Shown here: one piece after another, positions 39,270 through 58,422 of the stretch
Position numbering within the stretch: position 1 is the first letter of the stretch
Layout of the letters: every line of letters begins with the position of its first letter
Assembly: GCA_036386495.1 (NCBI GenBank)
Contig: DASVVP010000129.1
Location: forward strand, 3,464-67,463
Length of the DNA: 64,000 nucleotides
Origin: Allosphingosinicella sp.
GTDB taxonomy: Bacteria; Pseudomonadota; Alphaproteobacteria; Sphingomonadales; Sphingomonadaceae
Direction of reading: 5' to 3'
The notes under the pieces: model-generated
Databases searched by the model: none
Told to the model about the DNA's origin: nothing
What the model saw: the letters and a program-made list of their open reading frames with translations, nothing else
Translations under genes and position numbers: made by a program

Positions 39270-40534
39270 GCGACACCATCTATGCTCTCTCCTCGGGCGG
39301 CCCTCCGGCCGCCATCGCCGTGATCCGGATCAGCGGACCCGGAGCGGAGGCCGCCGTCAAAGCGCTGACCGGGACGCTGCCGCAGCCGCGGCGGGCGACC
39401 CTGGTGAAGGTCCGGCACGACGGCGAGGAGATCGACCGCGCCCTTGCCTTGCGCTTTCCGGGCCCGGAGAGCGCCACTGGAGAGGATATCGCCGAGCTCC
39501 ACCTCCATGGCGGCCGCGCGGTCGTTCGGGCCGTGCTGAGCGCCCTGGGCGCCGTGGAGGGGCTGCGCGAGGCGGAACCGGGCGAGTTCACCCGCCGCGC
39601 CTTCCTGAACGGCCGTATCGACCTCGCCGAGGCCGAGGGCCTGGCCGACCTGCTCAGCGCCGAGACCGAGGCCCAGCGCCGCGCCGCGCATGCGATGGCC
39701 GGCGGCGCGCTCAGCCGGCAGATCGACGCCTGGCGCGAAGCGATCCTGAGCCTGGCGGCCGACGTGGAGGCGATGCTCGACTTCGCGGACGAGGCTGATG
39801 TTGGCGAAGGTGCCGCAGAACGCTGGCCCGGCCGCGCCCGGGGTTTGGCGGCGGAGATGGCGGAGATGCTGGAGCGGCCGCCCGCCGAGCGCCTCCGCGA
39901 CGGTGTCAGGGTCGCGATCGCCGGTCCACCAAATGCAGGAAAATCCAGCCTTCTTAATGCGATAGCGCAGCGGGAGGCGGCGATCACATCGCCCGTACCG
40001 GGTACGACACGCGACCTCATCGAAGCGCCCGTCGCGATCGCCGGGATTCCCTTCCTGCTGACCGACACCGCGGGTCTGCGCGAAAGCCCCGATGCGATCG
40101 AACGAGTCGGCATTGCGCGCGCGCGCGCCGCCATGGATGCCGCAGATATCATATTGTGGCTCGGCATGCCCGCCGATGCACCCCCCGGCGCCATGCGCAT
40201 TCATCCCAAGTCCGATCTCGCCCTGCCCCGGGCCGGCGCCGATTTCGCCGTTTCGGCGGTAACGGGGGAGGGCCTTGCCGATCTCGCGCGGCTCCTCGTG
40301 GACCGGGCGCGCGCCCTGCTCCCGCGAGAGGGAGAGGTGGCGCTGCACAGCCGGCATCGAACGCTGGTGGCGGCTTGCAAAGACGCCCTGCAGGAAGCGG
40401 CCAGCGCCCAGGACGCTCTCATCGCTGCGGAAGCACTCCGTTCCGCCCGGATGGCGCTGGACCGGGTAACCGGGCGGGCCGGCGTCGAGGAAATGCTCGA
40501 CGCGCTGTTCGGCCGCTTTTGCATCGGCAAGTAA
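39266..40534 (+). CDS. mnmE: tRNA modification GTPase MnmE
   Basis: [34 protein letters not shown], terminal FCIGK. Confidence 0.96.
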
Positions 40535-40536
40535 GT

Positions 40537-40552
40537 TGTTCCACGTGGAACA
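40537..40552. other. parS site 1
   Basis: Perfect palindrome TGTTCCACGTGGAACA between mnmE and mnmG. Confidence 0.93.
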
Positions 40553-40563
40553 AAGCCATAGAT

Positions 40564-42423
40564 ATGGGGCCGGTGACCGACAGCTTCGACATCATCGTGA
40601 TCGGCGGCGGCCATGCCGGGGTTGAGGCCGCGGCCGCCGCAGCCCGGATGGGCGCGTCGGTGGCACTCGTCACCTTTGATCGCAGACAGATCGGCGCGAT
40701 GTCGTGCAACCCGGCGATCGGCGGTCTCGGCAAAGGACACCTGGTCCGGGAGGTCGACGCCTTCGACGGTATTATCGCTCGCGCCGCGGACTGGGCCGCG
40801 GTCCACTACCGGATGCTCAACGCGAGCAAGGGGGCGGCGGTACGTGGGCCCCGCGTCCAGGCGGATCGGAAGAGGTTCAAGGCCGCCGTCCAGGAGAGGG
40901 TCGCCGCGCAGCGCGGCTTGCAGGTGATCGAAGGCGAGGCCGCGTCGCTCATCCTCGAGCGCCGCCAGGTAACGGGCGTCGAGGCTAGCGGCCGGCGGTT
41001 GGCGGCCAAGGCTGTCGTGCTGGCCACCGGGACCTTCCTCGGCGGCAAGCTTCATTTCGGGATGACGAGCCGCGCCGGCGGCCGGATCGGCGAGCGCGCG
41101 GCGACAAGGCTCGCCGGGCAACTCCGCGGCCTCGGCCTGCCGCTGGCGCGGCTCAAGACCGGGACGCCGCCGCGGCTGGATGGCCGCACGATCGACTGGG
41201 CCGCGCTGGAGCGGCAGGAGTCGGACGGAGAGGGCTGGATGATGTCGCCGATGAGCGACGACCGGCCGGCCCCTCAGCTTTTTTGCGGGATCACGCGGAC
41301 CAACATCCGCACGCATGCGATCATCCGCGCCGCCCTCCACCGCTCACCCCTTTTCGCGGGAGATATTAGCGGAGTCGGGCCGCGTTATTGTCCTTCCATC
41401 GAGGACAAGGTCCACCGCTTCGGGGACCGCGACGGGCACCAAGTCTTCCTCGAGCCGGAAGGTCTCGACGATGCAGCGGTCTATCCGAACGGCATCTCCA
41501 CCTCGCTCCCCGAGGACGTCCAGCTCGCCATGGTGCGCTCGATGCCGGGCCTGGAGCGAGCCGAGATCCTGCAGCCGGGCTATGCCGTCGAATACGACCA
41601 TGTCGATCCGCGCATCCTCGATGCGACGCTCGCGGTGCGCGACGTCGGGGGCCTCTATCTCGCCGGGCAGATCAACGGCACGACCGGCTATGAGGAGGCC
41701 GCCGCGCAGGGCCTCGTTGCGGGCATCAACGCGGCCGCCCGGGCCGCCGCAAAGCCGCCGCTCATTCTTGACCGCGCGGATTCCTATATCGGCGTGATGG
41801 TCGACGACCTCGTCCTGCAGGGCGTCACCGAGCCCTACCGGATGCTGACAGCCCGCGCAGAATATCGGCTTCGCCTGCGCGCCGACAACGCCGAGCGGCG
41901 GCTTACGCCGCGCGCGATCGTGATCGGCTGCATATCGGAGGAGCGGCGCCGGCATTTCGCGGCGGACGAGGCGGAGCGCGTGCTGATCGAGGCCGCCCTC
42001 GCCGTGCCTCACGCCCCGCAGCAGCTCCGGGAAGCGGCGGTGCGGGTTCGCGACGAGGGGGCGCCGCGGACGCTTGCCGAGTGGCTTCGCTTCCCGGAAC
42101 TCGACAGCGACGGGCTCTGCCGCCTCGTCCCGGAACTTGGTGGATGCCCGCGGCGCATCCTCGATGAGGCCGTTCAGGACCATCGCTACGCCCCTTATGT
42201 CGAGCGGCAGCGGGCCGAGCTTACGCGGCTGCGGTCGGACGACGCCGTCCACATTCCCCAAGATCTGAATTTCGCCGCCATCCCCGGTCTTTCCACGGAA
42301 ATGGTCGAGCGGCTGTCGGGCGCCAGGCCCGCGACCCTCGGCGAGGCGTCGCGTATCCGCGGCATCACCCCCGCTGCGTTGAGCGCGATTCTTGTCCATG
42401 CGCGCAGACGAGTCGCCGCGTGA
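40564..42423 (+). CDS. mnmG: tRNA uridine 5-carboxymethylaminomethyl modification enzyme MnmG (GidA)
   Basis: [45 protein letters not shown]. Confidence 0.97.
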
Positions 42424-54629: not shown

Positions 54630-55259
54630 TCACCCGCGCGGTCCGCCACGGCGCCTGGGATCGGTGTAACGGAAGGCGCTGTCAGCGACCGGAACGTTGA
54701 AGCGCTGGTTGGAGAGCCGGACCGTGGTGCGGTTGTTCTGCGCGTCGAGCGTCGTCCAGCCCTGCAGGATCAGCCCGCCCGGCGCGCTGCCCGACTTGGC
54801 GAAGGCGATGGTGATCGTTCCGAACTCGCGCCGGCGCGGGTCGCGGGCCTCGAGCATCAGCACCTGCGCGTCGTTGCGCGTCACCCGCGAGAAGCGGGCG
54901 AGATCCTGGTTCGGATTGAGAAGCACGGAAAGCGGCGAATCGTTGATCGGCCAGCGCGACACCTGGCGCACGTCGTAATCAACGAAGTTGAGGGCGCGGC
55001 CGTCGCCGACGATCAGCATGTTGGCGCTGCGGCCGTAATCGAAGCGGATGCGGCCGGGCCGCTTCAGCGACACGGTGCCGCCCAAGGTACGGCCCCGCTG
55101 GTCGGTCTGGCTGAAACTGGCTGTCATGGTGGTGACGGCACGAAGATGCTGCTGGACCAGAGCCAGGCCATTATTGGCCTGCGCGGCGACCGGCATCGGT
55201 GCAAGCGCGGCCGCGGCGAGCGGAGCCGCGGCGAGAGCGAGCGCGCGAAAACGCAACAT
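54630..55259 (-). CDS. lolA: Outer-membrane lipoprotein carrier LolA
   Basis: Signal peptide, ASFSQTD, KRPGRIRFDY; ftsK-lolA-xth synteny. Confidence 0.88.
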   Translation of the reverse strand: MLRFRALALAAAPLAAAALAPMPVAAQANNGLALVQQHLRAVTTMTASFSQTDQRGRTLGGTVSLKRPGRIRFDYGRSANMLIVGDGRALNFVDYDVRQVSRWPINDSPLSVLLNPNQDLARFSRVTRNDAQVLMLEARDPRRREFGTITIAFAKSGSAPGGLILQGWTTLDAQNNRTTVRLSNQRFNVPVADSAFRYTDPRRRGGPRG

Positions 55260-55344
55260 GGAAAGTCCTTCCCTATCGTTCAGCTTTGCGGGGGATATGG
55301 TGTCGCCCCCTTGAATGCCCAGTGAACCCGCCGGTTCCGGATGC

Positions 55345-55765
55345 TCAGCCGAACTCCAGCCGGCAATGGCCGTCGCGCCTCATTTGGAAGTCGCAGCGTC
55401 CGAGGATGTCCATGCCGAGCAGCGCGTCGAATTCGAAAGCGTCGGTCAGCTCGATGCCGATTACCTCGTCGAAGACGAAGGGAAATGCGGGCGTCGACAG
55501 GTCCGAAATCTGCCTGCAAGCCAATGCGGAACGCGAGACGTTCGACCTGTCCTTCCCCCTGCGCCGACATCAGCAGGCGTTTGCCGAGCCGGGAAAGCGC
55601 CAGCTTCTCCGCCACTCGCGATGCGACCCCAACTGATGGACGACCCGGTGTCGAGCAGCGCCAGCGCTTGGATGCCCGTCAGATGAGTTATCGGAATGGG
55701 CGCGAGACGGTGACCGGCAGAAGGATTCGCCGCGGCTCGCGACTCCACTCAATGGACTGCGACAT
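55345..55765 (-). pseudogene. Retropepsin-like aspartic protease, interrupted by three frameshifts
   Basis: Segments MSQSIEW..RRILLPVTV / LAPIPITHLTGIQALALLDTGSSIS / GVASRVAEKLAL...FRIGL / FPFVFDEVIGIE...FDALLGMDIL..EFG* lie in shifting frames. Confidence 0.75.
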
Positions 55766-56003
55766 GCGACCAGAAGCCGAGGTCGATCGGCTCGTCGGTG
55801 ACCTCCTGGATCGAAAAGACACCATCGGGGAAACGATCGGCAGCGGCGAGCAGCGCCTCGCGCGGCGTATCGAAGTAACCGACAATCTTTCCGTCGCGCA
55901 TCAGCGCGAGCTGATCGCGATGCTCTTCGAGGATCGAGCCCAGAATCCGCATGAAGATGTCGTAGTTGCGGTCGACTTCCTGCTTCTGTCGCTCGACATC
56001 CAT
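55749..56003 (-). CDS. Small hypothetical protein, DUF5678-like
   Basis: Strong SD GGGAGGAG; EVDRNYDIF...HRDQLALMRDGKIVGYFDT...FSIQEV; overlaps the protease start. Confidence 0.75.
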   Translation of the reverse strand: MDVERQKQEVDRNYDIFMRILGSILEEHRDQLALMRDGKIVGYFDTPREALLAAADRFPDGVFSIQEVTDEPIDLGFWSHVAVH

Positions 56004-56103
56004 TGCCGACTCCTCCCTTCCCACGCGCCAGGAATCGCATAGATCGCGGCTGCCGCCAGGCAGCTTGCGCCGGAGCGAATCGGCCGCTCGCCGGACCGAG
56101 TCT

Positions 56104-58422
56104 TCAGCCCAGCGGCCGCCCCTCAGGATCGACCAGCACTTCGCGGCGGCCGACATGGTCGGGGACGCTGACGACGCCTTCCTTCTCCATCCGCTCGATC
56201 AGGCGCGCGGCATTGTTGTAGCCGACGCGGAGCTGGCGCTGGAGATAGGAGGTCGACGCCTTCTGGCTCTCGGCCACGGTCTGAACCGCCTTGCGGTAGA
56301 GCTGGGCCTCGGGGTCGTCCTCGCCGACCGGCTGGCCCTCGAACATGTAGCCGCCGTCCTCCGGCTCCTCGGTAACCGCCTGGATGTAATCGGGGTGGCC
56401 CTGGGCGCGCCAATGGTCGGCGACGGCGCGGACCTCGTCGTCGGTCACCAACGGGCCGTGAACGCGGGCGATCTGCTTGCCGCCCGGCATGTAGAGCATG
56501 TCGCCCTTGCCGAGCAGCTGCTCGGCGCCCTGCTCGCCGAGGATGGTGCGCGAGTCGATCTTGGACGTGACCGCGAAGCTGATCCGCGTCGGCAGGTTCG
56601 CCTTGATGACGCCGGTGATGACGTCGACCGACGGGCGCTGCGTCGCCATGATCAGGTGGATGCCGGCGGCCCGCGCCTTCTGAGCCAGGCGCTGGATCAG
56701 GAACTCGACCTCCTTGCCCGCGGTCATCATCAGGTCGGCGAGCTCGTCGACCACGACCACGATCTGCGGCAGCACCTCGTACTCCAGCTCCTCCATCTCG
56801 TAACGCGGCTGGCCGGTTTCGGGATCGTAGCCGGTCTGGACCCGCCGCCCGAGCGTCTGGCCCTTCATCCTCGCCTCGCGCACCTTGGCGTTGAAGCTGG
56901 AGAGCTGGCGCACGCCGACCGAGGCCATCATCCGGTAGCGCTCCTCCATCTGCTCGACGGTCCATTTGAGCGCGCGGATCGCCTTGGCGGGCTCCGTCAC
57001 GACCGGGGCGAGCAGATGCGGAATGTCCTCGTAGACGCTCAATTCCAGCATCTTCGGGTCGATCAGGATCATTTTGCACTGCTCCGGCGTCAGCCGGTAG
57101 AGCAAGGAGAGGATCATGCAGTTGAGGCCGACCGACTTGCCTGAGCCGGTGGTGCCGGCGACGAGCAGATGCGGCATCGGCGCGAGGTCGGCGACGACGG
57201 GATCGCCGGCGATGTTCTTGCCGAGCACGATCGGCAGCTGTGCGACCTGGTCCTCGAAGGCGTGGCTTCCGATCAGCTCGGAGAGGACGACGCTCTCGCG
57301 CTTGGCGTTGGGCAGCTCGATGCCGATCACGCTGCGGCCGGGGATGGTGGCGACGCGTGCCGACAGCGCCGACATGTTGCGGGCGATATCGTCGGCAAGC
57401 TGGATGACGCGGCTCGCCTTGATTCCGCTGGCCGGCTCCAGTTCGTACATGGTGACGACCGGGCCGGGACGGACCTCGACGATCTCGCCCTTGACGGAGA
57501 AATCCTCGAGCACGGACTCGAGCAGCCGGGCGTTGCGTTCGAGGCTGGCCTTGTCGAGCGCGACGTTGATCGGCGGCGGTGCCGGGTTGAGCAGGTCGAC
57601 CGTCGGCAAAGCGTAGCTGTCGCCGAGCGCAAGCGACGCCTGGCGATCCTTGCCCGAGCGGCGTGTCGCCGGCGCTCGCGGCCGCTCGGCGATGATCGGC
57701 GAACGGGGCTCCGGCGCGGGCGCGACCTGACGGCGCGCGGGGCGCTCCCTCGGCGCGGCGACGTCCTCCTCATCCTCGTCGGCAGGTGCGCGGAGCGGGA
57801 GGCGACGCGTGGCGAGCCAGTGGCGCTCCTCGCGGCTGAGGCCGAGTCCGATCCAGAGCAGGACCAGCCCCGCAAGCGCCAGCAGGACGGTGAGGACGAT
57901 GCGGAAGGGTTCGACGATGCCCGGCTCGCCGATCGCCGCCAGCCCGCGCTCGATCAAAGCCGCGAGCGAGAGCCCCGCGACTCCGCCCCAGCCGGCCGGA
58001 AGTCCGTTGATCGCCCCGGCGACCAGCAAGGCGACCGCCGTGCCCGCAAGCGCCGCGCCGACCAGGCTGATCGCGAGCAGCCGCCCGAAGCGCCGGTGCG
58101 GCGCCGCGAGCGCCAGCCGCAGACCGCTCAGGAAGAGGAGCGGCAGCAGCAGCGCCGAGACCGGGCCGAAAGCGGTGAGGAGCAGGTCGGCCGACCACGC
58201 CCCCGGCGCGCCGAGCCAGTTCTGCGCCGGCCCTCCCGCTTCGGTGTTGAGGGCTGGATCGGTGGGGTGATAAGTCGCGAGTGCCAGCGCCGCGCCCAGC
58301 GCGCCGAGGGCAAGCGCTCCGCCGCCCGCCAGGCGCACGGCCTTGCGGGCGCCGCGCTCGGCGCCTTGCTTCCACTGGCCCAGCCGGCCGGGCCGGGCGG
58401 AGCGTGCCGCAGCACTGGCCAT
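56104..58422 (-). CDS. ftsK: DNA translocase FtsK
   Basis: N-terminal TM domain, AGTTGSGKS, VDELADLM, ATQRPSVDV, gamma domain STSYLQR..VGYNNAAR. Confidence 0.97.
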   Translation of the reverse strand: MASAAARSARPGRLGQWKQGAERGARKAVRLAGGGALALGALGAALALATYHPTDPALNTEAGGPAQNWLGAPGAWSADLLLTAFGPVSALLLPLLFLSGLRLALAAPHRRFGRLLAISLVGAALAGTAVALLVAGAINGLPAGWGGVAGLSLAALIERGLAAIGEPGIVEPFRIVLTVLLALAGLVLLWIGLGLSREERHWLATRRLPLRAPADEDEEDVAAPRERPARRQVAPAPEPRSPIIAERPRAPATRRSGKDRQASLALGDSYALPTVDLLNPAPPPINVALDKASLERNARLLESVLEDFSVKGEIVEVRPGPVVTMYELEPASGIKASRVIQLADDIARNMSALSARVATIPGRSVIGIELPNAKRESVVLSELIGSHAFEDQVAQLPIVLGKNIAGDPVVADLAPMPHLLVAGTTGSGKSVGLNCMILSLLYRLTPEQCKMILIDPKMLELSVYEDIPHLLAPVVTEPAKAIRALKWTVEQMEERYRMMASVGVRQLSSFNAKVREARMKGQTLGRRVQTGYDPETGQPRYEMEELEYEVLPQIVVVVDELADLMMTAGKEVEFLIQRLAQKARAAGIHLIMATQRPSVDVITGVIKANLPTRISFAVTSKIDSRTILGEQGAEQLLGKGDMLYMPGGKQIARVHGPLVTDDEVRAVADHWRAQGHPDYIQAVTEEPEDGGYMFEGQPVGEDDPEAQLYRKAVQTVAESQKASTSYLQRQLRVGYNNAARLIERMEKEGVVSVPDHVGRREVLVDPEGRPLG

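Follow-up and report, generated by a model that had tools for sequence, protein, structure and literature searches.

A two-gene cassette of a DUF5678-like protein and a predicted retropepsin-type protease between ftsK and lolA, with a probable protease pseudogene in Allosphingosinicella

We analyzed a 64,000-nucleotide stretch of Allosphingosinicella sp. DNA (the window; contig C129 of genome G000, a 64%-complete metagenome-assembled genome, MAG) in which two small overlapping genes lie between ftsK and lolA. The first encodes an intact acidic protein of 84 amino acids, here called the partner, and the second corresponds, in intact relatives, to a predicted retropepsin-type aspartic protease. 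The reading that we tentatively favor, at a little short of an even chance, is that the partner is a dedicated and likely restraining subunit predicted to bind the protease, and that the two genes form a toxin–antitoxin (TA)-like or enzyme–inhibitor cassette that was recently broken in the window. The locus contains the following features:

56104–58422, minus strand: ftsK, host gene on the upstream flank (Pfam FtsK_SpoIIIE, E 1e-72)
56010–56016, minus strand: Shine–Dalgarno (SD) sequence GGAGGAG of the small gene, read from the sequence
55749–56003, minus strand: intact gene of the 84-aa acidic DUF5678-like partner (helix, beta-hairpin, helix, strand, disordered tail)
55764–55790, minus strand: conserved partner tail PIDLGFWSH, residues 72–80, with the protease ATG in the His codon, +1 frame
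55345–55765, minus strand: retropepsin-like aspartic protease, probable pseudogene (the nearest intact relative encodes 140 aa, the window copy a 25-aa product)
55644–55652, minus strand: catalytic DTG codons, unchanged
55408–55416, minus strand: second clan AA motif, GMD codons, unchanged (GMDIL from 55416 onward)
55312–55325, plus strand: TGA-N8-TGA direct repeat upstream of lolA, a host-site element that persists without the cassette
54630–55259, minus strand: lolA, host gene on the downstream flank (Pfam LolA, E 1e-27)

The initial annotation had placed an 84-aa reading frame with a strong SD at 56003–55749, a 17-nt overlap with a protease ATG at 55765, the DTG codons at 55652–55644, a C-terminal GMDIL and a TGA at 55345, and all of these were found at those positions. 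It had also described the cassette as an insertion between genes that are otherwise adjacent, which relatives with an empty site bear out (14 of the 20 ftsK–lolA loci from our first search). In five relatives (L005, L013, L014, L016 and L019), the spacer held other inserts, either another ORF or repeat-like hairpin elements, so this spot appears to tolerate insertions generally. The repeat near lolA was present as TTCA-N7-TTCA in 18 of 20 ftsK–lolA loci and matches the CenR motif given in the accessible part of PMC9275681; this likeness suggests that lolA may be a CenKR target in sphingomonads.

The two genes were found together in both surveys, consistent with the original proposal of a pair. 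Profile searches for the partner and the protease in a genus set of 156 genomes (including G065) detected the partner in 40, the protease profile in 42 and both genes in 39. Three of the 42 protease-profile genomes held weak matches only, near 1e-6, and one genome, G136, carried a partner without a protease. Every strong protease match in the genus genomes adjoined a partner gene or ended at a contig break. A wider survey of species-representative genomes confirmed 104 loci; among the best 80 of these, an adjacent protease match was present in 76, and the remaining four comprised three with the start and a protease remnant and one at a contig end. The pair is obligate.

Both ftsK and lolA flanked 54 of the best 80 of the 104 loci. 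Within the genus, 31 of the 41 loci examined occupied this site, and two of these were in reverse orientation with divergent sequences, which makes at least two separate entries into this site likely. Other cassette sites were mnmE–mnmG (three loci), pheT, aspS, greB, dnaX, rho and an IS1595. The mnmE–mnmG junction is a second recurrent insertion site (L054, L137 and L145); in the window, the junction of mnmE- and mnmG-like genes at about 40530–40570 is empty. Intact copies occurred in the cultured strains Sphingobium terrigena EO9, Sphingomonas sp. RB1R13 and Sphingomonas natans, and other loci came from records labeled Chloroflexota, Binatia, Nitrospinota, Thermodesulfobacteriota and Polyangiaceae. 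A phylum-wide sample yielded seven positive genomes out of 401, four of them with partner-only genes that have a different tail. With one query, no match was found in 72,556 plasmids or 50,697 GenBank phage records. IMG/VR contained six loci, five with a protease in the same register. In one IMG/VR contig (L187:1507–4700), a tyrosine integrase (with Phage_integrase and SAM_4 matches) and an IS91-type transposase are encoded divergently from the cassette, and this copy may be an integron cassette. Where flanking genes could be identified (many gave no family match), they showed no defense-island context, and neighbors were mostly housekeeping genes. PADLOC gave no match below E 1e-3; only PDC-M08B was returned for the proteases (E 0.0014–0.022), and nothing for the partners.

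The retropepsin assignment, made originally from short motifs in a repaired frame, was confirmed at the level of profile and predicted fold in intact homologues. Pfam Asp_protease_2 matched above its cut-off in two of two intact homologues. The DTG was invariant in 27 of 27 aligned intact homologues, as were G118 and D120 of the hydrophobic-hydrophobic-G-x-D motif near the C-terminus. An AF2 model of the homologue from G072, the closest intact relative of the window, reached a pLDDT of 87 and returned 49 Foldseek matches at E ≤ 1e-3, with nearly all of the matches listed being aspartic proteases. The top match of an intact homologue was APRc (5c9f; E 1.1e-6, TM 0.68, 18% identity). The model also matched the FIV, HTLV and HIV proteases and Ddi1, the last of which was matched by profile as well. 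Scores of 12.7–18.8 bits against TIGR03698 and TIGR02281, where the cut-off is about 57, do not make these proteins members of either. No strongly hydrophobic segment, N-terminal or otherwise, was found in the intact homologues, and a cytoplasmic enzyme is therefore predicted. The intact homologues are, according to these models, a predicted single-lobe clan AA retropepsin-type protease outside the curated subfamilies. The window's own copy, with its three indels and 25-aa product, has no open protease reading frame.

At 90% clustering the partner had 697 homologues, and at 50% there were 567 clusters; the partner is acidic, with a median net charge of −6. The DUF5678 label of the initial annotation stands as a likeness and not as membership: DUF5678 (PF18929) was the best Pfam match of the window's partner, over positions 2–43 of 49, at E = 0.008 and 16.4 bits, below the Pfam cut-off of 23.2. 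Weak matches to the same family were obtained for 16 of 34 homologues (E ≤ 0.1, best E 2.8e-4), and from these profiles a remote homology is likely. A DUF5678 search of 151 order-level genomes returned nothing, and the control in that search was equally silent. The partner was modeled as a confident alpha/beta core followed by a disordered tail (tail pLDDT 38–51 when modeled alone). This tail, P-[IV]-D-L-G-F-x-S-[HY], ranks with the best conserved parts of the protein. Its third codon positions are free and its Ser is encoded by both TCN and AGY codons, so the constraint acts on the protein. Fold searches with the partner gave no Foldseek match at E ≤ 1e-3 and a best VIA Z of 4.1, which argues neither for a new nor for a different fold. 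No DNA-binding antitoxin fold or basic surface was recognized in the partner, although this silence of the fold search would be compatible with there being one. The tail was degenerate in five stand-alone partners without a protease (L061 and L064–L067). One of these, L061 (G136:C18), is a divergent partner-only ORF at ftsK–lolA that lacks both the LGFxSH tail and the protease and has two GANTC sites 21 nt apart upstream; it is possibly an end state or a repurposed form. The other four, L064–L067, are partner-like genes from four genomes of one non-alpha genus, with a tail that ends CCG, and the gene directly before them presumably ends in an EAL domain, from the look of it. Five further homologues (P0132, P0148, P0159, P0234 and P0241) each contained two tandem partner domains.

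The protease start was fixed relative to the partner tail. A script placed it one base inside the codon that follows the tail's Ser in 78 of the best 80 of the 104 loci, and inspection showed the same for the remaining two. The position of the partner stop varied, giving an overlap of mostly 8–29 nt. Among 72 loci, the start position was occupied by ATG in 70, GTG in one and TTG in one. An SD-like word preceded one of 79 protease starts vs. 78 of 99 partner starts. Translational coupling of the partner and the protease would be the natural reading of this arrangement. Such gene overlaps have reportedly been linked, in one study, to heteromeric complexes.

Damage to the cassette was one-sided within the genus. 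Of 41 genus loci, 28 were intact, one was cut by a contig end, one had lost the partner stop codon, two were broken in both genes and nine were broken in the protease only. These nine consisted of five internal frameshifts, one DTG-to-DTR change, two C-terminal lesions and one deletion, each with an open partner gene. The reverse order, a damaged partner beside an intact protease, was seen in no locus, or in one if the lost stop codon is counted, so the loss order proposed from the window alone (protease before partner) holds at 9:0 or 9:1. Length-weighted binomial p values were 0.015 for 9:0, 0.064 for 9:1 and 0.06 for 6:0 (clear cases only); the count is small, and misassembly may lie behind single indels in MAGs. 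The flanking stretches were broken once in ftsK and twice in lolA among 59 loci, and two RefSeq strain genomes (L101 and L122) also carried a frameshifted protease. This asymmetry is suggestive, and both a costly protease and a partner with a use of its own fit it. As an argument for toxicity it is weakened because coupling itself would silence the protease upon a partner frameshift.

Under the restraint reading, the partner would be made first and in excess. Ribosomes finishing the partner would re-initiate on the protease, and the protease would therefore never be made without the partner. The partner tail, disordered alone, may fold onto the protease dimer, in the cleft or at the terminal sheet, in the manner of a separately encoded propeptide. 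An unopposed protease would be costly, and lineages would for that reason lose the protease first. Against restraint, the pair matched no described TA or defense family, and no DNA-binding fold or basic surface was recognized in the partner, whereas most type II antitoxins have a DNA-binding fold. Stand-alone and tandem-duplicated partner domains also exist, so the partner may serve a function of its own, and such a function would account for the protease-first loss as well.

The partner could instead be the substrate, adaptor or activator of the protease in a small regulatory module and not its inhibitor, with a harmless protease that is lost first since the partner would retain some function by itself. 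We consider this unlikely, though it is a serious competitor: the pairing and coupling data fit it too, and stand-alone partners persist, one of them at ftsK–lolA with a GANTC pair (L061). Retropepsins cleave aromatic-rich sequences, and the partner tail is aromatic-rich, of a kind such enzymes could cleave. On the other side, the partner-first order and the SD-less protease suit an excess of partner, and longer fused forms amounted to one SLH-domain protein among 7989 scored candidates in a weak search.

It is also conceivable, and in our estimate improbable, that the cassette is a nearly neutral accessory element drifting in and out of genomes, in which case gene length, the small counts and noise from assembly would account for the protease-first damage. 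Drift would be in keeping with how few genomes have the cassette (40 of the 156 in the genus set, 7 of the 401 in the phylum-wide sample), as it would with the damage in 11 of 41 genus loci and the single query without a plasmid or GenBank phage match. However, codon differences between the window and G072 (synonymous:replacement) were 13:6 in the partner and 23:7 in the protease (57:2 in lolA), pointing to purifying selection in both cassette genes, and the catalytic motifs and the register have been retained in several phyla.

The window's protease gene is spread over four frame segments in which the DTG and GMDIL are kept. We placed the indels by alignment to G072, to which the gene is 91% identical in nucleotides, and compared them in contigs of four sequencing runs (X1–X4), with the following result:

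55706–55707, minus strand: frameshift 1, one base missing (−1, about 55707), from the G072 alignment and contigs
55631, minus strand: frameshift 2, one extra base (+1), from the G072 alignment and contigs
55492–55493, minus strand: frameshift 3, two bases missing (−2, about 55493), from the G072 alignment and contigs

The earlier count of three frameshifts and the positions of the first two were upheld; the third, claimed as a +1, proved to be a deletion of 2 nt lying about 14 nt away, with the same net frame. The repaired protein had been estimated at about 139 aa, and its intact relative has 140. After indel 1, the frame ends at a TAA at 55690–55688, giving the 25-aa product. Compensation of the −1 by the +1 indel was ruled out, as this TAA lies between them, and so was programmed recoding at the three indels, as the break positions differ between genomes and close relatives are intact. 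A Logan contig from X1 (774 nt, 55145–55919, depth 3.3) shared all three indels uncorrected and differed from the window by eight substitutions and a single gap that falls outside the gene, at 55290. An identical 191-nt contig from X3 spans 55631, X2 agrees with the window at 55706 (no insertion there), and X4 yielded a 91%-identical contig with an intact frame at all three places. The same indels are thus present in contigs, as distinct from raw reads, of other runs, and the view that they are not sequencing noise is sustained. Accordingly, the protease gene is very probably a real pseudogene, and a recent one, because most of the codons that differ from G072 still do so synonymously. The accompanying statement that no other gene of the window is frameshifted was correct for the roughly 27 kb (36.4–64 kb) aligned to G072 and G122, where no other uncorrected coding indel was found.

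An origin of the three indels in misassembly, with an intact cassette in the organism itself, is very improbable. G000 is an incomplete MAG, three indels beside only seven replacement changes make a high ratio, and coverage is low in the contigs that agree with the window (depth about 3), with one run possibly being the source sample. Nevertheless, contigs from three runs of three studies match the window wherever the indels are covered, one of them with eight substitutions elsewhere, the 27 kb hold no further uncorrected coding indel, and the −35-like hexamer described below deviates in the window alone, too. In runs X2 and X3, contigs of an abundant relative matched the partner end and the lolA side of 55343–55745, and not the protease stretch (85% likeness); by these matches, the second gene of that relative appears diverged or replaced. 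Hardly credible is a programmed frameshift at the fixed +1 register yielding a Gag-Pro-like, self-cleaving partner–protease precursor: the invariant register, the SD-less protease and the several protease N-termini that start M-P after an aromatic codon would fit, but a true start codon is always present at the 72 starts given above, there is no conserved slippery sequence and third positions vary, and no true in-frame fusion was found in the fusion search or among 150 listed 50%-cluster representatives, where P0129 is a frameshifted copy.

The region upstream of the partner contained GANTC sites and promoter-like elements:

56098–56102: GANTC site 1 (GACTC on the minus strand), 21 nt from site 2
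56077–56081: GANTC site 2; in 14 aligned spacers its G, A, T and C are invariant and every base occurs at N
56054–56059, minus strand: −35-like hexamer CTGGCG, 17 nt before the −10-like hexamer, putative promoter element
56031–56036, minus strand: −10-like hexamer GATTCC after TG, with GANTC site 3, putative promoter element

The 14 aligned spacers are long-spacer loci of the ftsK type, picked by eye. The first −35 base is T in the 13 other aligned loci. A scan for E. coli-type promoters and terminators found nothing, the −35/−10-like hexamers included. Because G, A, T and C are invariant while N and the flanks vary, the alignment points to selection on GANTC itself. Within 120 bp before the partner, GANTC averaged 2.12 sites at ftsK-type loci (n = 58; at least two sites in 45) and 2.24 at other alphaproteobacterial sites (n = 25; at least two in 17). 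The mean was 0.47 for non-alpha or unassigned cassettes (n = 15; at least two in one), 0.34 before vapBC/parDE operons of five genus genomes (n = 32 of 34 matches; at least two in two) and 0.27–0.33 before G000 genes. Alphaproteobacterial cassettes therefore have about six times the upstream GANTC of the TA controls, in groups assigned from record titles and with related loci that are not independent. GANTC spacings peaked at 11, 21 and 45 nt, and the 21-nt spacing recurred 18 times among alphaproteobacterial cassettes. Empty ftsK–lolA sites had a single GANTC in only 2 of 14. The sole exception among non-alpha loci was L123, labeled Chloroflexota, which has four GANTC sites upstream and is possibly mis-binned.

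GcrA was found in five of five genomes searched and a CcrM orthologue in four of five, with CcrM not found in the incomplete G000. The GcrA-preferred context YGAKTCK fit 72 of 180 cassette sites (40% vs. 30% genome-wide). The GANTC sites would lie at −12, −57 and −78 relative to a putative start site; these positions differ from those of GcrA targets, which have GANTC near −20 or at +2 to +30 of the start site, according to the accessible part of PMC4647560. Judging from the upstream sequences, the cassette promoter is likely tied to CcrM methylation in Alphaproteobacteria. Genome-wide GANTC depletion (0.64 of expected) was dropped as evidence, as other A/T-containing words are depleted alike. 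A far-reaching and doubtful extension of the restraint reading is that the cassettes form a widespread undescribed TA class, with a retropepsin toxin held by a separately encoded propeptide-like tail, whose alphaproteobacterial members read CcrM methylation via helically phased GANTC sites. If so, the supply of partner and the release of the protease would depend on the replication stage or on a loss of methylation.

No description of the pair was found in the accessible literature, with subscription journals and supplements outside the search. New here are the fixed protease start in the partner tail, the SD-less protease, the protease-first damage and the GANTC-rich upstream region in Alphaproteobacteria. 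Among known enzymes, APRc (RC1339) of Rickettsia conorii (PDB 5c9f), the top Foldseek match, is likewise a single-lobe clan AA protease. It is outer-membrane embedded and processes autotransporters, according to the accessible part of PMC4140852, whereas the cassette protease has no anchor or signal segment and has a fixed small partner gene. The RloA/RimB system of Pseudomonas (accessible part of PMC12239564) resembles the cassette in having a bacterial dimeric DTG retropepsin in an operon, with the cassette dimer being predicted. RloA is described there as secreted and as cleaving glutamate-rich peptides, while the cassette has an 84-aa DUF5678-like partner and no adjoining ligase or membrane partner. 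The COG5550/COG3577 peptidases, with TIGR03698 and TIGR02281, are comparable prokaryotic single-domain clan AA ORFs of ~120–150 aa with no assigned role; no partner gene is mentioned for them in the accessible part of PMC2642776, and the cassette protease reaches at most 18.8 bits vs. the TIGR cut-offs of about 57. Promoters dependent on CcrM/GcrA (accessible parts of PMC4647560 and PMC13687562) share with the cassette a conserved GANTC in a promoter-like region and hosts that have CcrM/GcrA, but the cassette differs in its weak GcrA-context enrichment and in the atypical positions predicted for its sites.

The closest likeness in layout, as read from the genes, is to type II TA systems such as vapBC and parDE, and in this respect the cassette is TA-like: two small co-oriented overlapping genes, with the candidate neutralizer (its assumed role) first, distributed patchily (40 of 156 genomes) between housekeeping genes at varied sites. 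It differs in matching no TA family, in a partner without a recognized DNA-binding fold, and in a GANTC-rich upstream region, unlike the 32 vapBC/parDE operons of the same genus. The sole protease toxin candidate in the accessible part of PMC3632139 is a metzincin (COG2856). The pseudogene copy in the window counts mainly as one data point on loss order. Single-domain retropepsins are common in bacteria, and most of them have no known role; a partner whose conserved tail ends exactly at the protease start offers a concrete and cheap test of enzyme control. Such a partner might also represent a naturally occurring protein that inhibits an HIV-protease-like fold.
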